Below are positions 1 to 15,692 of a DNA stretch of 20,000 bases, one piece after another. The first letter of the stretch is position 1. Every line of letters begins with the position of its first letter. Where the stretch lies: positions 51,298 through 71,297 of the IMG/VR virus record IMGVR_UViG_3300009034_000021; one strand, 5' to 3'. Below the pieces are notes generated by a model that was not told the DNA's origin, did not search any database, and worked only from the letters and a program-made list of their open reading frames with translations. Both the position numbers and the translations under genes were made by a program. This DNA comes from an uncultured virus (IMG/VR IMGVR_UViG_3300009034_000021). Its lineage: Duplodnaviria; Heunggongvirae; Uroviricota; Caudoviricetes.

Positions 1-1768
1 CTCTCGCCTTCGGGTGCGGCATCAGGTCGGGCCGCAGGACAAACACACGATCCGCCTCGCCGCCCTTCGCCTTATGCACGCTGGAGAACGTCACGCCCTC
101 GGCGTCATCGCTGAAAACTTGACTGACTTTGCGCTCCAGTTGGGCGACAGTGCTGCAACCGTCTGACAAGGCGACAATGGTTTCAACCCTATCTCGCAGC
201 GATTGTGCTCTCATGCTCTTGCCCAGCCGGTTGAGCTTGCGGACTTCTTTCTTACTATATTCCATCAGGGCGTCAAGCGTATCGGCCAGGCTGTAGACAC
301 GTCGTTTCTTTTGCACTTTCTTGACCAGGTCCATCAAGCCCTTGCCGATGTCTCTGCCGAGGATGACGGCCTTGACGCCACGTCGGATAAGACTAAAGGC
401 TGGCTCAATTAACGGTGCGTTGCATCGGCAGAGCACCAAGTCATTGACCTGCACTATATTCAGGAATTCATAGCTGGAGATGTCCTTGATTGTGCCTTCT
501 TGTGCCCAGTCAGCCGCCTCAATGTGCGGCACGAGCCGCTGGGCTAGTGCAACATGAGACGTTGGGCAACGGTAGGATATACTGAGTGGTAACACTGTGG
601 CGTCTAGCGCCGCAATGATATTCGGCATCGCGTCCACGTCGGCACCACGAAAGCCGTAAATTGACTGGAATTCATCACCCACGGCGATTATCCTGCCGTC
701 ATCTTTGATAGACCTTAGTGCCATTGCAATCTGTGCCTTGTTTAAGTCTTGGCACTCATCAACGAATAAAAAGTCAAATTTTTCACAAGGCGCGATGCCT
801 GTCGCCGAGAAGAATATCATGTCGTCGTAGTCTATGACTTCAGTCTGTTCAATGGACTTTTCGTAGACTAGTTTGACTAAGTGGTGGATCGTATCAGTAT
901 TGCCGTTAGTCTCAATATTCCACCGGTCGGCGATCCACTCCAAGTTCTCTGGCATCGGCTTTCGCAGGGTCGCCTTGCATAAGCTAACCAGATGTGAGAT
1001 TGACTGGCCGTTCGTCTGCAAGGTGTCATAAACCTGATAGTCTCCTCCCGCAATTTCTGCGGCGGTATCGGCGATGATATGCCACAGTTTGCGTGGTTCA
1101 ACCTCAACTTTGCCGAGCGCGCTGCGGATGTTGCCATATCCCAGGCTGTGCAAAGTTGAAACATGCACATGCTCTGGCGCACGCTTCGCGAGCTCTTTGG
1201 CAATGTGGCGATTGAAAGCCACGAATGCTACCTTGTCGTCTGGCGAAGTGAACTTGAGTCCTTCAACGAGAGCAGTGGTTTTTCCAGACCCAGCAACGGC
1301 TTTGATGACACCATGTCCTGTGCCAGACTTGATGAATTCAAAGATAGCCTTTTGGTATTTTGAGGGCGTGAACACTTTCGATGCTGCCGGCGCAACTTGA
1401 GTCTTGCTACCATTCTTGCCATCTTCCAGCGCCAGTCGCCACAATTTCCTCAACTTGCCGGTCATCCTGTCCTGCCAGCCTGGCTTGCGTGTCGTCCAGG
1501 CATCCAGCTTGCCCAAGGCGAACCACTTATCAACCTTGCGATAGTGATACTCCACCCACAGCCTGATGCTGTCCTTGCCAGTGCTGGCGGACTTGTCATT
1601 GCGCCTGACTGAACTGCGGATCATGATCCGCTTGTTCGTCTCAGGTATTGGGATGCGATAGGCATGCTCGCCTTGCACAAGACCAGTATATTTCCATAAT
1701 GGCTCGCCGGTCTCTTTGTGGGTGGGTAGTGCTTGTTCAAACTGTTCTCTCGTAAAAGTTTCTATCAT
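1..1768 (-). CDS. Superfamily 1 (UvrD/Rep-like) DNA helicase with ~125-aa N-terminal extension; 3' end runs off the window
   Basis: Manual translation from ATG 1768 (SD AGAGGAG): MIETFTREQ...; motif I AVAGSGKTT, Ia AFNRHIAKEL, STLHSLG, Walker B FVDECQDLN, motif III AVGDEFQSIYGFRGAD, motif V SSVHKAKGGEAD. Absent from the ORF track because there is no stop in the window. Confidence 0.93.
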   Translation of the reverse strand, partial: MIETFTREQFEQALPTHKETGEPLWKYTGLVQGEHAYRIPIPETNKRIMIRSSVRRNDKSASTGKDSIRLWVEYHYRKVDKWFALGKLDAWTTRKPGWQDRMTGKLRKLWRLALEDGKNGSKTQVAPAASKVFTPSKYQKAIFEFIKSGTGHGVIKAVAGSGKTTALVEGLKFTSPDDKVAFVAFNRHIAKELAKRAPEHVHVSTLHSLGYGNIRSALGKVEVEPRKLWHIIADTAAEIAGGDYQVYDTLQTNGQSISHLVSLCKATLRKPMPENLEWIADRWNIETNGNTDTIHHLVKLVYEKSIEQTEVIDYDDMIFFSATGIAPCEKFDFLFVDECQDLNKAQIAMALRSIKDDGRIIAVGDEFQSIYGFRGADVDAMPNIIAALDATVLPLSISYRCPTSHVALAQRLVPHIEAADWAQEGTIKDISSYEFLNIVQVNDLVLCRCNAPLIEPAFSLIRRGVKAVILGRDIGKGLMDLVKKVQKKRRVYSLADTLDALMEYSKKEVRKLNRLGKSMRAQSLRDRVETIVALSDGCSTVAQLERKVSQVFSDDAEGVTFSSVHKAKGGEADRVFVLRPDLMPHPKAR

Positions 1769-4134: not shown

Positions 4135-5494
4135 TTGATACTCTTTTCATGGTGATAGCGCAAGCCTTAGATTGTAAATCAAAACCAATCCAACTTCTAT
4201 TAGCTTCTATGGCTGCCTCAGCGGTCGTGCCGCTGCCGATAAAAGGGTCACAAACTATACCGTCCGGCGAACACGACGTTACAATTATTCGCTTAATGAG
4301 GTCAAGTGGCAGTTGGTTAGGCCAAGATGTTTTACTTTCGGAAACGTTCTTGACTAAGTTGTATTCCCACCAATCGTATGGGGTTGTTCCCTCTTTGCCC
4401 AGATGCGCAACCCTCTTATCATTGGGATTTTTGTAAGGTTGTAAGTCCGCTTCGCCTTCAAAGAAAGCAGGCTTGTTGCCTCGTATGTAATAAAGAATAG
4501 TTCTATGCGAACGTCGCCAATTATCATTGGTTTGCCCGGTGTTTGACGGGTAGACCCATGAAAGCCAACGCTGGAAAGTGAAAAGTCCGTCGAGTTGCTG
4601 TTTCCACTGTGCTGCTACCTCTGGGTAGTGCATCAGGTAAAACGCACCACCAGGTTTTAGAACGCGGTATGCTCCCCAGAACCAATGCACGCACCAAGAA
4701 AGATATTCGCTTTCTTCTTTTTTGTCCTTGAATCCCTCGCCGTAGTTCTTGCTTAGATTGTATGGTGGGTCAGCGAACACCAAATCAATGCTTGCCTCTG
4801 GCAGACCCATGAATCCTTCGAGGCAATCGACTTGATGAACTTTATTTAGTTCATAGACGCCAAGCGTGGGAATAGGTGGTGTCTTTGACTCGTCACTGGA
4901 AATTTCTTGATTTTCTTCCTCGTCGATTTTTTGTTTTTCTTCTTCGTCACTGTCGGCTTCTGCTTCTTCGGCTTTCTCAGTTTCTTGGATTTCTTTTTTG
5001 GGTCGTTCTATGGTGCGAGGATATTCTCTGCCATCCTTTCCGATAAAGATTTTAACGATTCTAATTTGAAGACGTTCCTCAAGTTTTCTTCTGATTCTTT
5101 TGACTGTATCCTGATGAACTCCTAAATCTACAGAAATCCAGTTATTAGTCCTTTCAAAATGCAGTTTCAGGAATTTTTCTATAACGCCTTGTCTCTCCTT
5201 GCGTGTGAGAGGCAGGCCATGTTTCAAATTGGCAAGCAAAGCGTACTCCTCGGCTTGCTCCAGAGTACCAAACCTGGCTTCAACTTCTATCTCCTCCAAC
5301 TTCAGAATCTCGGCAGCACGATAGCGATGCCAGCCATCTACTAACAAGTAATTACTTTTGTCTGGTATCTTAAAGACTACGATTGGTGGTAGTTGGTCAA
5401 AGCAATCTGCATAACCTTTCGCAATTTCAACATCGGTTTTAGTTCTTGGGCTTAGTTTACTATCTCTTTCAATCTGCTTCAATCTCAGCTTCAT
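4127..5494 (-). CDS. ParB/Srx-HTH fused to beta-class N6A/N4C DNA methyltransferase
   Basis: N-terminal LVDGWHRYRAA (ParB/Srx), HTH-like TNNWISVDLGVHQDTVKRIR, acidic linker; C-terminal IDLVFADPPYN (motif IV) before DPFIGSGTT (motif I). Confidence 0.92.
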   Translation of the reverse strand: MKLRLKQIERDSKLSPRTKTDVEIAKGYADCFDQLPPIVVFKIPDKSNYLLVDGWHRYRAAEILKLEEIEVEARFGTLEQAEEYALLANLKHGLPLTRKERQGVIEKFLKLHFERTNNWISVDLGVHQDTVKRIRRKLEERLQIRIVKIFIGKDGREYPRTIERPKKEIQETEKAEEAEADSDEEEKQKIDEEENQEISSDESKTPPIPTLGVYELNKVHQVDCLEGFMGLPEASIDLVFADPPYNLSKNYGEGFKDKKEESEYLSWCVHWFWGAYRVLKPGGAFYLMHYPEVAAQWKQQLDGLFTFQRWLSWVYPSNTGQTNDNWRRSHRTILYYIRGNKPAFFEGEADLQPYKNPNDKRVAHLGKEGTTPYDWWEYNLVKNVSESKTSWPNQLPLDLIKRIIVTSCSPDGIVCDPFIGSGTTAEAAIEANRSWIGFDLQSKACAITMKRVSIE

Positions 5495-5528
5495 TACAAT
5501 CTCCTAGTCTGTGTTGTGCTTCTCTTAG

Positions 5529-5607
5529 TTAATAGTTAATTAATTAATCACTAGATATATAGTCTTTGGCTCCTATATAATCAGGTTTCTAATTAATTAA
5601 CTATTAA
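5529..5607. repeat. AT-rich perfect 18-bp inverted repeat
   Basis: TTAATAGTTAATTAATTA (5529-5546) / TAATTAATTAACTATTAA (5590-5607), plus inner TATATAG (5556-5562)/CTATATA (5573-5579). Confidence 0.85.
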
Positions 5608-6172
5608 TTAACTTCCAGTAGCCGCGTCTCGCGTTGCCGGAATATCCTTTCCGGCTGGCTATATTTTTCATCAAATTCCAGTCGTCTTCACTGGTCACAA
5701 TGCCTTTGACTTCTGCTGCCTGTCTGATACTGTCCACTTCAACTTCCATGCCGCCGGCCAGTGTATAGCCGATCCAGTCCTCCATAACCTTGCTTTTTGC
5801 TCTGGGTGTGGGTAGCTGAAGCTGATAATTCTCAAGAAAGCTTTCGTGGTCTATCTCGTTTTCTTCACAGAACTGTTTGAATTCTTCTAGGGTGCTTTGT
5901 TCGTAGATGTACTCAAGTTGTCCCTTTTCAATGACTCTGGCTTGCTTCTCCAGCCATTTTCTAGATATTGCAAAAGCTCGTTTATCTATCTTGCCCTCTA
6001 ATTCTTTGGAGTTGGCAAGTAAATTCAAACCCTCCCTGAAGATGCGGTTTATTGCTTTTGTCCTGGAGTCTCCTAGTGCCGCCCAAACTTTGATGAATTT
6101 TTCATCAGTTGCAAGTACTTCTTCTGGGCCGCCTTTGATGTAAGCAGGATAGACACGCAGCATCTCGGCCAT
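5597..6172 (-). CDS. hypothetical protein (191 aa), possible C-terminal winged-helix DNA-binding domain
   Basis: Long ORF with SD AGGAG; C-terminus (VDSIRQAAEVKGI...RRGYWKL) looks wHTH-like by eye only. Confidence 0.75.
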   Translation of the reverse strand: MAEMLRVYPAYIKGGPEEVLATDEKFIKVWAALGDSRTKAINRIFREGLNLLANSKELEGKIDKRAFAISRKWLEKQARVIEKGQLEYIYEQSTLEEFKQFCEENEIDHESFLENYQLQLPTPRAKSKVMEDWIGYTLAGGMEVEVDSIRQAAEVKGIVTSEDDWNLMKNIASRKGYSGNARRGYWKLINS

Positions 6173-6193
6173 ACTAGTCTCCTAAAACGCAAA

Positions 6194-6332
6194 ACGTCTC
6201 TTGGTGACGGCCCCTCCGGTTGGCAAGAAGGGGGCTGGCGAACCCCTGACGAGAAAAGGGGTCGTCACCAAGAGACGTCTTTTAATAAAGTGAGTATTGT
6301 GCTGTGTTATCAATTTGCCAACCTTTCTCGTC
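6194..6332 (-). ncRNA. Three-stem structured leader with loop-to-upstream-target complementarity (C4/CI antisense-like), copy 1
   Basis: 16-bp perfect outer stem (6194-6209/6263-6278); two inner hairpins whose 9-nt loops (UUUCUCGUC, UUGCCAACC) are exactly complementary to the 18-nt target at 6315-6332; followed by UUUUG. Confidence 0.75.
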
Positions 6333-6402
6333 AATCTTATTTATTAAGCAACGGGTGCGCCATTCCCGCCGCCACGGGCCTGGGCCCGCCGAGGTTATTC
6401 TA

Positions 6403-6687
6403 TCACGAATCGCCTATCCTGTCAACCTGGCCGTCATACCCTGAGCTCGCCTGGTCTCTCACGACAATCGGCAGATATATGCTTAATCTCACCGGTGGCA
6501 TCAATGTTCTCACAGGCACAACCGTCACCGGAACCGTAGGCATCGCCGTAGGCCAAACTCTCGTCTCGCCTGTGGGCCAAGTTTTCGTCGGCCAAGGTGT
6601 GGGTTCGTTTGCTAACACATTGCTAAGACCTAAGATACACGTTACAAACGTAATTAACAACAGCAACCTAAATTTCTTACACAGCAT
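6403..6687 (-). CDS. Secreted Pro/Thr-rich protein with IYLPIVVR motif
   Basis: Signal peptide, (P/K)TWPT repeats, Chloroflexota-type YLPxxxR motif. Confidence 0.7.
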   Translation of the reverse strand: MLCKKFRLLLLITFVTCILGLSNVLANEPTPWPTKTWPTGETRVWPTAMPTVPVTVVPVRTLMPPVRLSIYLPIVVRDQASSGYDGQVDRIGDS

Positions 6688-6706
6688 TTTTATCCTCTAC
6701 TTAAAT

Positions 6707-6916
6707 TCAATCTAGTGCAGCCGCTTCGCCGAATTCCTTGACGAATTTCTCTACCATCTTGGTTAGCTCTGCATACGATACATCCTTGCTGTTGCGCGAA
6801 ACAGGAAAGTGAAAGTCCCAATCACAAAATGACGCCAGGATCGCGTTTAGGCTGCCCTTTGCGCGCTCCCATTCCATGTAGCGTGTTGCTAAAATTATCT
6901 GTCTGTTCGTCGTCAT
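6707..6916 (-). CDS. hypothetical protein (start refined to MTTNRQ)
   Basis: SD AAAGGA before ATG 6916. Confidence 0.65.
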   Translation of the reverse strand: MTTNRQIILATRYMEWERAKGSLNAILASFCDWDFHFPVSRNSKDVSYAELTKMVEKFVKEFGEAAALD

Positions 6917-10357: not shown

Positions 10358-10519
10358 GACTGCGGGCAGGTCTCTCACCTGCTCCCACGTTGGCCCTTCG
10401 TGGCGTCATGGCCATGACGCCACCATGGGGTTTGACGGACAGCGCGAGGCATATCCGTAGTGGGTCTACCAGTCCAGCGTGTCCATTAAGCGGTTAATCC
10501 ACTCCGCGCCGCCGCAGTC
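10358..10519 (-). ncRNA. tRNA-like structured element (copy B)
   Basis: 8-bp closing stem GACUGCGG/CCGCAGUC; canonical 5-bp/7-nt T-arm geometry GCAGG-UGAGAGA-CCUGC; enlarged D-like, anticodon-like and variable regions; no CCA, no TTCG. Confidence 0.7.
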
Positions 10520-10523
10520 CTGT

Positions 10524-10868
10524 TTATCCTTGTTCTTCAACGCGCCCTCTTGCCCATCTGACCCACCGTTTGCGCTCCATCGGCTCCTCTTCTATGTCAA
10601 ATGAACAGAGCCAACAGAAAAGTATACCATCGATTTCTCTCGTCATTATGGGCCAATCCTCTTTGCATCGAGGACAAAAGCCTAAGTCAATTACCTCTGT
10701 CTCTGTCACAATATCCTCCATATTGTCGTAGTCCTGCTTATGTGGTCGGTGTACCGGTCGCCGCCAGCCCCACCTGCCGTACCACCCGTTACCGATCATC
10801 CAGTGGCTCAGGAATTGTGTCCATCCCGGACGACGCCACGTCAATTCGTGGCCTGGCTTGAACCACAC
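10524..10868 (-). CDS. hypothetical Trp-rich protein with CxxC pair
   Basis: CPRC...CWLC; 1-nt overlap with the HNH stop. Confidence 0.6.
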   Translation of the reverse strand: MWFKPGHELTWRRPGWTQFLSHWMIGNGWYGRWGWRRPVHRPHKQDYDNMEDIVTETEVIDLGFCPRCKEDWPIMTREIDGILFCWLCSFDIEEEPMERKRWVRWARGRVEEQG

Positions 10869-11407
10869 TATATTTTTCTCAAAACCATTCCTGCCTCTTC
10901 TGGCGTTCTTGGTCCTTTTTTTCTATTACAGAGAGCACAAGCTGGTACAATATTATCGGCAGTATACCCGCCGCCTTGTGTAACGGGTATCACGTGTTCT
11001 TGTTGTAATGAGCTTACTGTTCCACAATAAGCGCATCTATAGTTATATTGTCGGAGAATCTTTTGCCACTCTATATCCGTCAGGGTTGCTGGCAGGGCTG
11101 CTTTCCGCGCACGGCGGCGTTCGGCCCTGGCCCGATCTGCAGCCTTATATCTTTCTGGATCCCGATCTTTATACCTATAATATTTTTCCCTACGCCGAAC
11201 TAGAGAAAGTGGGTGTGCAGCATCATAGGTTTTTTGGTAAGTCCTTCTTTCCTCCCGATGTGTTTCTCTGTATATCCGCCAAGTCGTAGGATAAGTGTAA
11301 TGTTTCCTGCATTTCTTGCAAGCATACTGCAATCCATCTCTGCGAGTTTTATCTTTATGAAATTCACTTTCGTCCAGAACTCTTTTACATTTTGTGCACT
11401 GCTTCAT
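10868..11407 (-). CDS. HNH endonuclease with N-terminal Zn finger (homing-endonuclease-like)
   Basis: CTKC...CKKC N-terminus; CAYCG...EHVIP..GG...NIVPACALCNRKK. Confidence 0.92.
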   Translation of the reverse strand: MKQCTKCKRVLDESEFHKDKTRRDGLQYACKKCRKHYTYPTTWRIYRETHREERRTYQKTYDAAHPLSLVRRREKYYRYKDRDPERYKAADRARAERRRARKAALPATLTDIEWQKILRQYNYRCAYCGTVSSLQQEHVIPVTQGGGYTADNIVPACALCNRKKGPRTPEEAGMVLRKI

Positions 11408-11414
11408 GACAAAA

Positions 11415-11551
11415 CGCCCCTATCATGGCTGCTAAGGTGTCAGACTAAGCAGGGCGATCCTTTCTCGACCGCACATGATAAGGGCGCTTCGTCCACAATA
11501 TTCATTGTGATCCTATAAAAACAAACCGCCCCTTTGTGCTTAGTCTGACAC
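11415..11551 (-). ncRNA. Three-stem structured leader with loop-to-upstream-target complementarity (C4/CI antisense-like), copy 2
   Basis: 13-bp outer stem (11415-11427/11474-11486, one G-U on minus strand) covering the HNH SD; two inner hairpins; 11437-11451 is perfectly complementary to 11537-11551 (15 bp); ends CGUUUUG like copy 1. Confidence 0.75.
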
Positions 11552-11555
11552 TCCA

Positions 11556-11583
11556 ATTATAGCGGTTTTCGCAGCTTTGTCAA
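11556..11583 (-). promoter_or_regulatory. Consensus sigma70 promoter for leader RNA/HNH
   Basis: TTGACA(11583-11578)-16 nt-TATAAT(11561-11556). Confidence 0.8.
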
Positions 11584-11609
11584 TTCAGCACCTTGACACA
11601 CATCGGCTG

Positions 11610-11819
11610 TTAAGTTATTTTGCGCCAATGTGTAACTCCGTCTTTGGTCGTGAACCACTTGGCAAAGAGAGGTTGCACTTTCCAGCGCCAGCCTGTGAAT
11701 ATTGCCAGTGCTGGCACTGTAGAACCGGTGACCAGCACCAAAAATAGGCCGGTAGGCTTCGGTAATTTTTCTTTTACGGAAATCCACTTCGTTTCTTCAG
11801 GCATGTTGATTTTTCTCAT
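11610..11819 (-). CDS. DUF551-like phage protein
   Basis: WISVKEKLP...VTHW motif; start refined by ATGA overlap (11804 also possible). Confidence 0.75.
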   Translation of the reverse strand: MRKINMPEETKWISVKEKLPKPTGLFLVLVTGSTVPALAIFTGWRWKVQPLFAKWFTTKDGVTHWRKIT

Positions 11820-12007
11820 TCCGTGAGTTGTGGCCTGGCTTGAGAATCTGACTTGCCAGTAAACCATCCATCATAGGAAATCCACTTACCACGAAACCAC
11901 CAGCCGCGCTCGGTTGCATAGTCCCCGTGGCCCAGATATGTTCTCAGTTCATCTCGAATGGCTATTTTGTCCAATAACCAAAGATGGAATCGCTGCCACC
12001 TATTCAT
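11816..12007 (-). CDS. hypothetical protein
   Basis: ORF track; start refined to the ATGA-coupled ATG. Confidence 0.55.
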   Translation of the reverse strand: MNRWQRFHLWLLDKIAIRDELRTYLGHGDYATERGWWFRGKWISYDGWFTGKSDSQARPQLTE

Positions 12008-12132
12008 AACCATGTCCATCTCTCATCCCACCAGGCAGGATGACTGAAAAGTGCATATGCCTGGGTGGTAACGATTGGTTTTCGTCTAAGTCTCTGCAAT
12101 AGACGTTTGATAGCTTTAATTACGTTAGCCAT
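12004..12132 (-). CDS. 42-aa hypothetical peptide
   Basis: Manual translation MANVIKAIKRLLQRLRRKP...WTWL; fills the gap with overlaps at both ends. Confidence 0.5.
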   Translation of the reverse strand: MANVIKAIKRLLQRLRRKPIVTTQAYALFSHPAWWDERWTWL

Positions 12133-12282: not shown

Positions 12283-12402
12283 CTACTCCGCCGCCATCTC
12301 GTGGCCACAGTCGAGACATACGTATTTCGCCGTGCGTTTACCTGCGCTTACGACGGTTCGCTTGTTGATGTTCGTTGACTTGCACTTCGTGCACTTTACC
12401 AT
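12283..12402 (-). CDS. zinc-ribbon microprotein (39 aa)
   Basis: MVKCTKCKS...YVCLDCGHE. Confidence 0.65.
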   Translation of the reverse strand: MVKCTKCKSTNINKRTVVSAGKRTAKYVCLDCGHEMAAE

Positions 12403-12662
12403 CTCTCGTCTTTCTCCGATTCTGTCACAAGGCGTTTGTAGACAACCCAGAAAGACGAGAGATTGACTTCTGTCGTCCAAACGGAAATCCGCCCTGGCAC
12501 GACACGATCACGAGCATCGGTTGCCGTGTCTTTGATCCGGACAGATGCGCCCGTTTCCCTGATCGCCTGCTCAAGTAAAGGACGTTTTGCAGAAGGATAA
12601 TTGCCGACACAGTGGTCTTTCGTGAGTAGGTATTCGTTCTTCTTAGCTTTTTCCTTATCCAT
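12396..12662 (-). CDS. hypothetical protein (88 aa)
   Basis: SD AAAGGTGA. Confidence 0.65.
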   Translation of the reverse strand: MDKEKAKKNEYLLTKDHCVGNYPSAKRPLLEQAIRETGASVRIKDTATDARDRVVPGRISVWTTEVNLSSFWVVYKRLVTESEKDERW

Positions 12663-13020: not shown

Positions 13021-13143
13021 TTGTTGCCTCCATTGAATTCAATATGCTGGCAGGCGGGTTTCATTGAGCTGACTTCCTGACAGGGATGCTGGTTGGATTT
13101 GTACCCGCCTGCCAGTTACGAGCGGCGCAGGGCTTGATGCCTG

Positions 13144-15663: not shown

Positions 15664-15692
15664 ATTATACACCATTTTCCCCGTTTTGTCAA
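15664..15692 (-). promoter_or_regulatory. Consensus sigma70 promoter, near-identical to 2423-2451
   Basis: TTGACA-AAACGGGGAAAATGGTG-TATAAT versus TTGACA-AAACTGTGAAAATGGTG-TATAAT. Confidence 0.88.

Follow-up and report, generated by a model that had tools for sequence, protein, structure and literature searches.

A candidate two-state RNA leader before an HNH endonuclease gene in the early region of an uncultured phage

A free-standing nuclease is a hazard to its own genome, and to our knowledge the way in which such enzymes are restrained in phages outside the T4 group is largely unknown. An HNH endonuclease gene in the window (the whole stretch of 20,000 nucleotides analysed here) is preceded by a consensus promoter and a leader rich in complementary segments, which raises the question of what this leader does for the gene behind it. 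According to the preliminary description, the leader belongs to a portable module of promoter, RNA switch and selfish nuclease or, alternatively, is an RNA cofactor of the nuclease. With somewhat better than even confidence, the region is read here as a promoter followed by a 140-base 5' leader, which together head an early phage operon with the free-standing HNH endonuclease encoded first. Its features are as follows.

11556-11583, minus strand: sigma-70 consensus early promoter (12/12 matches; one of four such sites in the genome).
11537-11551, minus strand: key segment a, GUGUCAGACUAAGCA, located where the transcript is predicted to start; it pairs with a' (11451-11437).
11521-11534, minus strand: decoy copy of the SD region, b, AAGGGGCGGUUUGU, which pairs with the 5' part of the anti-SD strand in the open fold.
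11494-11509, minus strand: small hairpin h1, CACAAU GAAU AUUGUG, a predicted structure.
11474-11493, minus strand: anti-SD strand c, GACGAAGCGCCCUUAUCAUG, paired with decoy b in the open fold and with SD region d in the closed fold.
11454-11472, minus strand: hairpin h2, GCGGUC GAGAAAG GAUCGC, common to both folds.
11429-11452, minus strand: hairpin h3 of the closed fold ('hairpin 2' of the preliminary description), in which a' makes up the 8-nt loop and the 5' stem strand.
11408-11427, minus strand: translation-initiation strand d, CAUGAUAGGGGCGUUUUGUC, with the SD AGGGG at 11421-11417, adjoining AUG 11407.
10868-11407, minus strand: HNH endonuclease gene (179 aa), with an N-terminal CxxC...CxxC region and an HNH domain.

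The promoter lies on the minus strand as first reported, with TTGACA at 11583-11578, a 16-nt spacer and TATAAT at 11561-11556, and it matches the consensus at 12/12 positions. The pattern TTGAC[AT]-16..18-TA.AAT occurs at just 4 sites across the 71,298-bp genome, all on the window's minus strand and 4-5 kb apart, as for operon promoters. By direct reading, the spacer of the HNH promoter is like those at 15692 and 2451 (TTGACAAA.C.G.GAAAA) and unlike that of L043, a locus with an HNH homologue that is described below. At its other end, the HNH gene is joined to the next ORF (10524-10868), as its stop TAG overlaps the GTG start of that ORF in the sequence ATAGTG. A promoter scan found no consensus promoter between 11551 and 11474, and a scan of IMG/VR with the promoter pattern returned 7 other contigs with unrelated leaders.

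The 179-aa product matches the Pfam families PF14279 (1.2e-11) and PF01844 (4.2e-11), and HNH_5/HNH are its sole domain matches (residues 125-174). Among PHROGs it matches phrog_1035 (1.9e-34 over residues 1-172) as well as many other HNH families, and its structural relatives are the HNH domains of solved structures, those of Cas9 and IscB among the best. The gene product is, on sequence grounds, a true HNH endonuclease, as had been proposed. Its CxxC...CxxC N-terminal half is common to phage 'endonuclease VII/HNH' families, and these family matches would place it, like the T4 enzymes, among phage homing-type endonucleases.

A nucleotide search with 10500-12100 against 50,697 phage records gave no match. 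IMG/VR was also scanned with the HNH protein, its two small flanking proteins and the 434-aa phosphoesterase, which returned one near-identical contig only (99.92% over 6,537 nt, with 0 differences in 11408-11583). A metagenome scan with the HNH protein yielded 79 loci, none closer than 27-43% identity, and in a blastn of the leader against all retrieved loci the matches were confined to the start of the coding region. Small parts of the stretch are represented in three sediment DNA runs, from which two short contigs (214 and 179 nt) agree with 11301-11457 except for 3 differences, continue into a diverged HNH homologue, and end before the rest of the leader.

The segment 11551-11537 (GTGTCAGACTAAGCA) begins 5 nt past the -10 box, which is where the transcript would be expected to start judging from the -10 position only. 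All 15 nt of it are 100% complementary to 11451-11437, on the minus strand as claimed before, and the stem of key and a' comprises 15 perfect bp, or 17 bp with one bulge. Perfect inverted repeats of at least 15 nt with a gap of at most 300 number 5 in the genome versus 0 in each of 100 block shuffles, and those of at least 12 nt number 13 versus a block-shuffle mean of 0.94. Elsewhere in the genome, the best other matches to the key or its partner have 3-4 mismatches. The outer stem pairs 11493-11474 with 11427-11408 (20 nt, 85% complementary), covers the AGGGG at 11421-11417 and ends in CGUUUUGUC directly before AUG 11407; its 3 non-Watson-Crick positions, read directly, give G.U pairs throughout in minus-strand RNA, where RNA of the opposite strand would have C.A. 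A direct repeat of the SD region that is absent from the preliminary description links 11533-11521 with 11421-11409 (13 nt, 12/13 identical). The anti-SD strand has two targets in the same transcript, the decoy (11534-11521) upstream and the SD region (11427-11408) downstream, as in P1 c4 and P4 CI. The 15-nt inverted repeat, the 20-bp G.U helix and the 12/13 SD repeat are three independent non-random features that fit one design.

As a separate observation, hairpin h1 carries the AUG (11505-11503) of a possible 21-codon mini-ORF that would end at UGA 11442-11440, and an AGGA (11514-11511) lies in an unpaired bulge upstream of h1. The chance of such a mini-ORF length after a given AUG is ~0.37.

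The leader fold has a predicted energy of -63.2 kcal/mol (z = -5.76), and 0/200 shuffles were as stable. For RNA from the predicted start at 11549, the open fold reaches -66.6 kcal/mol versus -57.9 with the SD helix enforced, and overall the open fold is favoured by 7-9 kcal/mol when the 5' segment is present. For RNA from 11536, from which the key has been removed, the SD-helix fold is the minimum (-55.3 kcal/mol) and P(unpaired) of the SD is 0.0. Hairpin h3 is seen with the SD helix enforced, as well as in the minimum-energy fold without the 5' arm. The proposal that the outer stem buries the HNH SD holds in that the 20-bp helix covers AGGGG, but not for the minimum-energy fold, in which the SD lies outside the outer stem; by constrained folding, the SD-burying three-stem fold is an alternative state that becomes the minimum only without the 5' segment. 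The same constrained folding agrees with the idea of a sense-strand, RNA-level element with two mutually exclusive folds, between which the 5' segment decides. In the open fold the SD is still locally paired, with P(unpaired) of 0.0-0.04 from start 11549 and of 0.8-0.95 in read-through RNA. When growing prefixes are folded, the helix of decoy and anti-SD is predicted once 76 nt have been made and the key helix once 108-113 nt have, which in both cases precedes synthesis of the SD.

These models suggest that the leader is a cis-acting two-state switch on translation, and perhaps also on termination, of the HNH-led early operon, and the balance of probability lies slightly on the side of this reading. 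In the closed state, the anti-SD strand (11493-11474) and the SD/start strand (11427-11408) would form the 20-bp helix that closes the three-stem structure, which would hide the ribosome site, while the CGUUUU end may also halt transcription. In the open state, the key, which comprises the transcript's initial 13-15 nt, would pair with the loop and 5' stem strand of h3, the decoy copy would take up the anti-SD, and only weak local structure would remain at the real SD. Since transcription yields the key first and stability favours the open state, full-length transcripts are predicted to be ON, and RNA without a free key would snap to OFF. The key may be lost through 5' decay or processing, through a start further downstream, or by being bound by something else; that the switch as predicted is always ON counts against this reading. 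As for termination, the outer stem ends in GGGGCG followed by UUUUGU, with 4 U only. A terminator scan did not report this site, and its loop limit of 8 would exclude such a stem regardless.

The suggestion that the HNH protein instead uses the RNA as a cofactor or guide, in the manner of IscB and its omega RNA, with the protein as an IshB-type HNH-only relative, draws on the position of a structured RNA directly upstream of the gene, on the Cas9 and IscB HNH domains among the best solved relatives, and on an HNH domain that is 49% identical over 53 aa to the IscB-like protein of the same genome, an alignment limited to that domain. The length of 179 aa also matches that of IshB, for which about 180 aa is reported (PMC11610941). 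On the other hand, no match to HEARO (RF02033) was found in the window at E <= 1, and the same search finds HEARO upstream of the genome's IscB-like gene; this match, in L111 of that genome (1179-1414), has 35.6 bits and an E-value of 7.6e-5, below the gathering score of 83. More generally, no Rfam family was found at E <= 1 in this leader, nor in those of L035, L043 and L154 (see below), and the window as a whole yields a single Rfam match, to COG3610-DE at 6172-6269 of the plus strand, whose E-value of 0.18 leaves it well short of the threshold. Moreover, the protein is without an RRXRR domain or RuvC part, its N-terminal half is the one that phrog_1035 (residues 1-172) and other phage 'endonuclease VII/HNH' families have in common, the candidate 'guide' end is fully base-paired in the leader, and the same architecture stands before a non-nuclease gene (copy 1, below). 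The cofactor reading, which was the alternative offered at the outset, is accordingly given next to no weight.

Several other classes were considered and rejected. A riboswitch does not fit a P1 helix of 15 perfect bp, which is too long, and no aptamer and no Rfam match were found, while the open fold is favoured ligand-free. Self-cleaving ribozymes and introns likewise had no Rfam match. For a retron msr-msd, the inverted repeats do flank structured RNA, yet no reverse transcriptase was noticed nearby (without a dedicated search), and for a MITE-like element the arms are without a further copy in the genome.

A second leader in the window bears on how general the architecture is.

6190-6425, minus strand: copy 1, with promoter TTGACA-17-TAGAAT (6425-6397), key, three-stem structure and SD/AUG (6172).

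The copy 1 key is a contiguous 19-mer (6333-6315), UGACGAGAAA followed directly by GGUUGGCAA. The three-stem structure (6282-6190) has a 19-bp outer stem and two 7-bp hairpins, and the 9-nt loops of both are complementary to the upstream key, with key halves and loops in crossing order by direct reading. The arrangement is terminator-like, in that the three-stem structure is followed by UUUUGCGUUUU, and the next SD/AUG (6172) is that of a 191-aa gene. A MAFFT alignment of copy 1 with the HNH leader leaves the stems out of register, and the earlier view of the two as one topology in unrelated sequence stands, with a 19-mer key facing two loops of a terminator-like three-stem structure. The architecture is kept in a related phage (L154), upstream of a homologous gene, with key and loop sequences replaced together, as expected of sequence-diversified elements; the pairing of key and loop covers 9 nt in copy 1 (GGUUGGCAA:UUGCCAACC) and 12 nt in L154 (GGUAAGUCAGUG:CACUGACUUACC), where the leader ends in a U7 run. 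The related phage G001 (72% complete) is without a homologue of the HNH protein, the 114-aa protein or the phosphoesterase.

The 191-aa protein, for which 13 homologues (47-84% identical) were found, is helical, has weak winged-helix matches only, and is without a nuclease signature or nuclease fold. Selfish nuclease cargo is therefore not supported as the common denominator of the two copies; further points against a nuclease-cargo module are the spacer of the HNH promoter, which is like those of the phage's own early promoters, and the overlap of the HNH stop with the next start. Behind the 191-aa gene lies an AT-rich hairpin, which the related phage has too.

The pairing of keys with loops could also mean that the leader is a same-strand antisense system which, as with P4 CI or P1/P7 c4, acts in trans. 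After termination or processing, three-stem RNAs would accumulate, and their loops would bind the keys of newly started transcripts before these make their own partner, leading to the closed, terminated form; the early operon would be shut off over time, or immunity would result, and the different key/loop pairs of each operon would therefore avoid cross-talk. Consistent with this, the key is complementary to 8-14-nt hairpin loops in every instance (h3 here, A and B in copy 1, B in L154, the apical loop in L035), and loop pairing is the usual recognition geometry of natural antisense RNAs. In addition, the key is transcribed 60-100 nt ahead of its cis partner, there are terminator-like U runs (UUUUGCGUUUU in copy 1, U7 in L154), and the crossing order of key halves and loops in copy 1 suits separate loop contacts over one continuous helix. 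The anti-SD strand, with one target upstream and one downstream, also resembles c4, which has upstream and downstream targets at its a1b1/a2b2 sites. The c4 RNA moreover sits within the c4-icd-ant operon that it controls (PMC8198154). Against action in trans stand the lack of an Rfam match at E <= 1 for any of these leaders and of a third copy of key or partner in the genome (best others 3-4 mismatches), as well as the cis open fold, which here is favoured both kinetically and thermodynamically, so that a trans competitor would need to be abundant. On this evidence, we consider control in trans unlikely. A wider proposal, held still a little more doubtfully, is that the leader family consists of self-titrating early-operon timers, with the promoter-key-trap unit mobile with the HNH gene in one lineage. 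At each early promoter, the 5' key would hold open its own terminator/SD-trap, until accumulated terminated or decayed three-stem RNAs capture the keys of later transcripts and turn the operon off. Key/loop pairs would differ between operons and phages so that each acts on its own only, and the mobile cassette of promoter, key, trap and HNH gene would have been met in three different genomic contexts so far.

Long helices are found elsewhere in the window as well. Its minus-strand intergenic hairpins with perfect 13-18-nt stems and structured interiors lie at 5529-5607, 6194-6278, 11437-11551, 12401-12463 and 13047-13115, and because three of the five are without a key segment, such helices are a general feature of the early region. 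They could be RNase III sites and/or 5' stabilisers of early mRNAs, as between T7 early genes, with the pairing of the SD secondary; a cut in the 15-17-bp helix would detach the HNH mRNA from the genes before it and strip it of the anti-SD. The HNH leader helix begins at the predicted transcript start, and a helix at the 5' end of a transcript fits protection of that end; the AT-rich hairpin after the 191-aa gene, shared with the related phage, could be counted on the same side. However, RNA processing leaves without explanation both the triplet of decoy, anti-SD and SD with its G.U-containing 20-bp helix and the joint replacement of key and loop in the homologue of copy 1. The stems (15 bp perfect, 17 bp with one bulge) are also shorter than two helical turns, and an IscB-based genome scan for the host gave matches of 31-42% identity scattered over several phyla, among them Bacillota, Chloroflexota and Cyanobacteria. 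We therefore hold it improbable that processing or stabilisation is the main role of these helices.

Comparison with other HNH genes was made through L035 and L043, which carry full-length homologues that are among the closest (27% identical). Each has a -10 box and, 5-6 nt past it, a segment that pairs inside a start-site-burying hairpin in the same crossing order, and in the L043 key helix both mismatches are G.U on the sense strand by direct reading. Each of the three HNH-linked leaders stands in a gene context of its own. The closed fold is the more stable one in L035 and L043, by 5.5-10 kcal/mol, and here it is the open fold, so the energetic logic is not uniform across the three. The architecture scans were script-based descriptor tests on homologue upstream regions, and the three blind scans, over 77-79 such regions, gave no general enrichment upstream of nucleases: perfect inverted repeats of at least 10 nt occurred in 4/77 regions versus 11/230 control windows, a crossing-helix score of at least 22 in 2/79 (this leader and L043; L035 scored 0) versus 3/395 shuffles, and a duplex-energy scan was positive for 3/79 versus 11/474. 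The 105 loci contain 334 distinct TATAAT sites, of which seven precede an HNH-like start by 60-200 nt, and 3/7 of these have a helix score of at least 22 versus 22/327 elsewhere, with L035 at the top of all 334. Recurrence with HNH genes thus survives in part, as comparable leaders in two of the closest full-length homologues but not as a general enrichment, and the link is biased because L035 and L043 were both found by a search with the HNH protein.

The three leaders also allow the 15-bp arms to be viewed as DNA, that is, as a pair of inverted operators to which the HNH protein or some other phage repressor would bind, the first lying at the transcript start and the second 100 bp downstream, with autorepression as for I-TevI. 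The first arm lies 5-6 nt past the -10 box in all three leaders, and the arms here and in L035 share the core CAGAC(C)TAAG on opposite arms, which is easier to understand as a DNA site than as an RNA strand. I-TevI represses its own promoter via an operator that resembles its homing site (PMC2988022). Yet the L043 arms are unrelated in sequence, with their two mismatches G.U on the sense strand, a single 15-mer is not palindromic, and the 20-bp G.U helix and the decoy make sense only as RNA, all of which makes an operator function very improbable.

Under the cis-switch reading, the restraint of the nuclease looks like a compact, sequence-programmable RNA device of key, decoy and trap. It looks as though such a device can be moved and re-coded, as it is met again ahead of a second early gene and, with its sequences replaced in matched fashion, in a distant relative. 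If confirmed, the key/loop logic would add a type of cis (or self-titrating) RNA control for the early genes of uncultivated phages and offer synthetic gene control a set of small orthogonal parts; should the leader do no more than stabilise or process mRNA, the finding is an ordinary one.

Among known systems, IscB/IshB with their omega RNA (HEARO, RF02033) likewise have a structured RNA directly upstream of a small HNH-domain protein, and the same genome has a likely IscB with a HEARO-like RNA. Unlike these, the leader fails the HEARO model, its protein is without the RRXRR/RuvC part, and its 5' end is paired, whereas a guide would be free. In the MS2 maturation gene and in hok mRNA, a 5'-proximal temporary pairing keeps the start open until a stabler long-range closed structure forms. 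The leaders of L035 and L043, whose closed fold is predicted to be stabler, would fit kinetic control of this type; in the window's leader the open fold is stabler, and time alone would therefore not close it, unlike in MS2 and hok.

The likeness to P1/P7 c4 and P4 CI lies in a regulatory strand and targets on the same strand of one leader, in an upstream and a downstream target, of which the downstream one overlaps the ribosome site of the first gene, and in hairpin loops as recognition elements, with related elements that have different, matched sequences. The HNH leader has no sequence or Rfam similarity to c4 and P4 CI; its pairing could be satisfied wholly in cis, with the cis open fold as the predicted stable one, and the controlled genes, which encode an HNH nuclease and a 191-aa helical protein, are unlike those in P1 and P4.

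In T-even phages, an RBS-sequestering hairpin with a nearby promoter is an established control of phage homing endonucleases, with I-TevI, I-TevII, I-TevIII, segB and Aeh1 mobE as cases (PMC2988022). As there, the SD of a phage endonuclease can be locked in a very stable hairpin, here the 20-bp helix (of minimum energy only once the 5' arm is removed), a promoter directly precedes it, and the freedom of the RBS is set by which hairpin-forming part the transcript carries. In T4, the proximal late promoter starts inside the hairpin, so that short transcripts are ON and long ones OFF (PMC2988022). By contrast, the start of the HNH leader lies neither inside nor after the inhibitory strand: the promoter is a sigma-70 consensus early one, not late, and stands upstream of all elements, its -10 box ending at 11556 before both helix strands. 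The 5' key and the decoy SD would here hold the hairpin open, so that complete RNA is predicted to be ON and RNA without its 5' end OFF. The HNH leader thus appears to be a variation on a mode of nuclease restraint already known from phages.

The virus record in IMG/VR is 71,298 bp long, and the window is its right-hand 20 kb. Structural genes and others of large size occupy the plus strand between 1.4 and 47 kb of the genome, and the window is filled by a minus-strand block of small genes, encoding a UvrD-type helicase, a ParB-N6/N4 methyltransferase, a metallophosphoesterase, DUF551, DUF5131 and an HNH endonuclease, and is an early/replication region. Only four sites genome-wide match TTGAC[AT]-16..18-TA.AAT, all on the minus strand of the window and 4-5 kb apart (15692, 11583, 6425 and 2451); three of the four share a spacer pattern, TTGACAAA.C.G.GAAAA, read from the sequence. 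The site at 11583 opens the HNH cassette, which comprises:

11583-11556, minus strand: HNH promoter, TTGACA (11583-11578), 16-nt spacer, TATAAT (11561-11556), 12/12 matches
11551-11537, minus strand: key, GTGTCAGACTAAGCA, starting 5 nt past the -10 box
11493-11474 with 11427-11408, minus strand: helix over the Shine-Dalgarno sequence (SD helix), 20 nt, 85% complementary
11407-10868, minus strand: HNH ORF, 179 aa

By its spacer family and regular spacing the HNH promoter looks native to this phage; the portable promoter module suggested in the preliminary description is not supported here. Back-to-back with it lies a plus-strand promoter-like site (11593-11621, TTGACA-17-TATTTT, 10/12) directed antisense into the DUF551 gene, and the TTGACA of this site and the HNH promoter's -35 box together make an inverted repeat of 6 nt (TGTCAA-9-TTGACA).

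The downstream gene is an HNH endonuclease, as had been proposed. Residues 125-174 match HNH_5 (1.2e-11) and HNH (4.2e-11), residues 1-172 match phrog_1035 (1.9e-34), the protein has CxxC pairs and an H...N...N motif, and HNH domains of solved structure match it at 1e-7 to 1e-8. The stop codon of the gene and the GTG of the ORF that follows overlap (ATAGTG), so the HNH gene is joined to the downstream operon. On the minus strand, two direct copies of the 13-mer CAAGCCAGGCCAC, at 11830-11842 and at 10848-10860, flank the DUF551 gene, promoter/leader and HNH gene and fall in differing reading frames of the flanking ORFs; chance alone would give the window about 0.5 such pairs, so they may mean nothing.

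Every element listed for this leader is present: the 12/12 promoter, the exact 15-nt complementarity and the outer stem covering the SD. The exact reverse complement of the key lies at 11451-11437. Perfect inverted repeats of at least 15 nt within 300 nt number five in the genome and zero in each of 100 block shuffles, and those of at least 12 nt number 13 against a mean of 0.94. The SD helix includes the SD AGGGG (11421-11417) and ends one base short of the AUG at 11407. Its three non-complementary positions would be C.A on the opposite strand but are all G.U in the minus-strand RNA, so the element reads as a helix in the sense RNA; that the repeats are DNA operators is a lesser alternative. 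Absent from the preliminary list is an upstream duplicate of the SD region (11533-11521 vs 11421-11409, 12/13 identical), a decoy SD that offers the anti-SD strand (11493-11474) a second pairing option. Folding of the 156-nt leader gives -63.2 kcal/mol (z = -5.76), a stability that none of 200 shuffles reached; a role as RNase III or stability elements is likewise a lesser alternative.

Two folds were computed for this RNA. From the predicted start at 11549, the minimum-energy fold (-66.6 kcal/mol) consists of the key paired with its complement, the decoy paired with the anti-SD, and two small hairpins, and leaves the SD region outside the key/decoy domain. Enforcing the SD helix gives -57.9, a penalty of 8.7 kcal/mol; from 11555 the corresponding values are -67.1 and -59.8. 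When the RNA starts at 11536 and lacks the key, the SD helix fold becomes the minimum (-55.3 kcal/mol; probability of an unpaired SD 0.0), and it consists of the three stems originally described: the outer stem and hairpins 11472-11454 and 11452-11429. The key and SD helices cross (key, anti-SD, key complement, SD) and are therefore mutually exclusive in any nested fold. According to prefix folding, the open fold arises in synthesis order, with the decoy helix present by 76 nt and the key helix by 108-113 nt, and it persists in a read-through RNA of 321 nt that comes from the upstream gene. Both alternatives are therefore real within the energy model, where the key decides between them and the SD-burying form, minimal only without the key, is the alternative and not the ground state.

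These data somewhat favor a predicted leader switch acting in cis, with the 5' key and decoy SD holding the trap open. Without them, the ribosome site would be buried and transcription perhaps terminated, such that complete transcripts would be ON and RNAs lacking the 5' end OFF. It is rather unlikely that free three-stem leader RNAs instead act in trans by binding the keys of newly made transcripts. A candidate 21-codon mini-ORF, MNIVDEAPLSCAVEKGSPCLV (11442-11505, minus strand), spans the anti-SD, the hairpin at 11472-11454 and most of the key complement, with AGGA 5 nt ahead of its AUG in the sole large unpaired bulge of the open fold. Its translation would open both the key and decoy helices; an open run of this length has a chance expectation of about 1 in 3.

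The sole close relative of the HNH leader is a 43.6-kb contig, IMGVR_UViG_3300009034_001625, which is 99.9% identical and invariant over 11408-11583, giving no close-range comparative evidence for the leader itself; two short sediment contigs cover 11301-11457 with 3 differences. Over 11.3 kb, 9 positions differ in the 43.6-kb contig. Among them are a 1-nt deletion within the HNH gene (11346), which would shift the frame if real, the loss of 2 nt from the methyltransferase gene (4744-4745) and two changes in the copy 1 hairpin described below (6264 and 6246), neither compensatory; the indels may be assembly errors. Two loci of HNH homologues, L035 and L043, have the crossing order of the window leader. 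L035 has a divergent upstream gene and a TGnTATAAT box; its key, 15 nt long (93%, 12 nt of it perfect), pairs with the stem and apical loop of a hairpin of 21-25 bp. The base of that hairpin pairs with GCGAGG, and AUG comes next. In L043 the promoter is TTGACA-16-TATAAT, the two mismatches of the key helix are both G.U, and positions 388-400, among them the A of AUG, are the pairing partner of an anti-start strand. In both loci the closed fold has the lower energy (-43.5 vs -38.0 and -41.6 vs -31.8, respectively). In all three leaders TATAAT is followed by AGTGT within 4 nt, a motif with 5 occurrences in 382,757 nt (both strands searched), two of which precede HNH-like starts, by 112 and 127 nt. 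The three cassettes lie in three different gene contexts.

General enrichment of the architecture was absent from three blind scans of regions upstream of HNH homologues. The longest perfect inverted repeat reached at least 10 nt in 4/77 distinct regions vs 11/230 random windows; a crossing-helix score of at least 22 was found in 2/79 (the window's own, 38, and L043, 23) vs 3/395 shuffles, with L035 missed (score 0) because the script permits no bulges; and duplex energies of -16 or below occurred in 3/79 vs 11/474. A narrower test was positive. It covered 105 loci with 334 distinct exact TATAAT sites, and seven of these sites precede an HNH-like start by 60-200 nt. The segment after the box forms a helix scoring at least 22 with a downstream site in 3/7 of these, compared with 22/327 elsewhere, and L035 has the highest score of all 334. 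In our reading, most members of this HNH family lie within operons and lack such a leader, and those with their own promoter tend to have the key. The loci were found through the HNH protein, so the enrichment upstream of nucleases that had been anticipated cannot be claimed.

A second leader, copy 1, precedes a gene for a 191-aa protein, and the expectation of the same topology in unrelated sequence was borne out, as a 19-mer is complementary to loops inside the three-stem form:

6282-6190, minus strand: copy 1 outer stem, 19 bp, downstream of the 6425 promoter, followed by UUUUGCGUUUU and AGGAG-N8-AUG (6172)

Folded alone, the interior forms two 7-bp hairpins with 9-nt loops (-19.3 kcal/mol), and the whole three-stem form (-49.3) is within 2.5 kcal/mol of the minimum (-51.8). 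The loops, UUUCUCGUC(A) and UUGCCAACC, are perfect complements of one contiguous upstream 19-mer (6333-6315). Comparative evidence is good for copy 1. The 191-aa protein has 13 homologues (47-84% identity), and the leader was compared with that of one related phage record (L154/G001), where the homologue is 48% identical. The promoter there has the same form (TTGACA-17-TAGAAT with TG), and the leader, with 70% column identity in the alignment, is built of an outer stem of 15 bp with U7 and a pair of inner hairpins. The 14-nt loop of its second hairpin includes CACUGACUUACC, the perfect complement of GGUAAGUCAGUG in the upstream key; the equivalent positions in copy 1 read UUGCCAACC and GGUUGGCAA. 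This joint replacement of key and loop is the strongest sign of selection on their pairing. The copy 1 leader (6190-6425; L154 2720-2952), with its promoter, 19-nt key and terminator-like three-stem structure, is thus conserved ahead of the homologous gene and by itself appears to be a genuine, new structured leader RNA. The proposed nuclease cargo is not supported for its gene, which is not recognisable as a nuclease: the 191-aa protein has no Pfam or PHROG match and no solved relative by sequence, and the structure matches of its helical AlphaFold model (pLDDT 81.6) are weak winged-helix ones (E >= 0.28), with no nuclease fold among them. Three further long intergenic hairpins have structured interiors, and the AT-rich one after this gene has a 22-nt counterpart in the related phage (L156 12451-12526):

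5529-5607, minus strand: perfect stem of 18 nt
12401-12463, minus strand: perfect stem of 15 nt
13047-13115, minus strand: perfect stem of 13 nt

A search of these for a key segment found none, and they may be processing or termination sites.

The suggestion that the leader RNA is a cofactor of the HNH protein is also a lesser alternative, and it failed both tests applied to it. The window has no match to HEARO (RF02033), although the same model gives a sub-threshold match elsewhere in this genome (L111 1179-1414, 35.6 bits, E 7.6e-5), and the HNH protein has no RRXRR domain. The HEARO match lies 5' of a 430-aa ORF with RRXRR (1.6e-52) and HNH domains, whose IscB-like product has relatives at 31-42% identity in Bacillota, Chloroflexota, Cyanobacteria and others. 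The same piece of the genome (780-2760) has four direct repeats of 37 nt, TTTCAATGCTAAGATCTGATTTTAGACAGTTGCAACC, separated by spacers of about 36 nt, and a 13-nt inverted copy of the repeat at 1177-1189; judged from sequence, it looks like a phage-borne, CRISPR-array-associated IscB system. Elsewhere in this genome, an 871-aa ORF adjoining the portal gene (4295-6910) has LAGLIDADG/Hom_end matches and is probably an intein, and a T4 Rnl1-type RNA ligase gene (47671-48708) lies at the junction of the plus-strand and minus-strand gene blocks. In two other IMG/VR contigs (L144 701-1330 and L151 701-1797), tandem units of about 370 nt, each with a TTGACAAACC.GAGAAAAATGCGTATAAT promoter and then a hairpin RNA of about 100 nt with a terminator and variable loop, look like small RNA gene arrays in unrelated phages.

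Overall, the original observation is confirmed and its interpretation partly supported. P4 CI and P1 c4 are RNAs that act in trans on new transcripts, and the trans model of the three-stem RNA is likened to them. The c4 RNA is an antisense RNA within the operon under its control (PMC8198154). For the favored cis-acting switch, the nearest established parallel is the hairpin that occludes the ribosome-binding site of T-even homing endonucleases (PMC2988022). The logic here would be inverted, with complete transcripts ON and 5'-less RNAs OFF. The putative RNA device is coherent and partly conserved, a variation on an established type of control.
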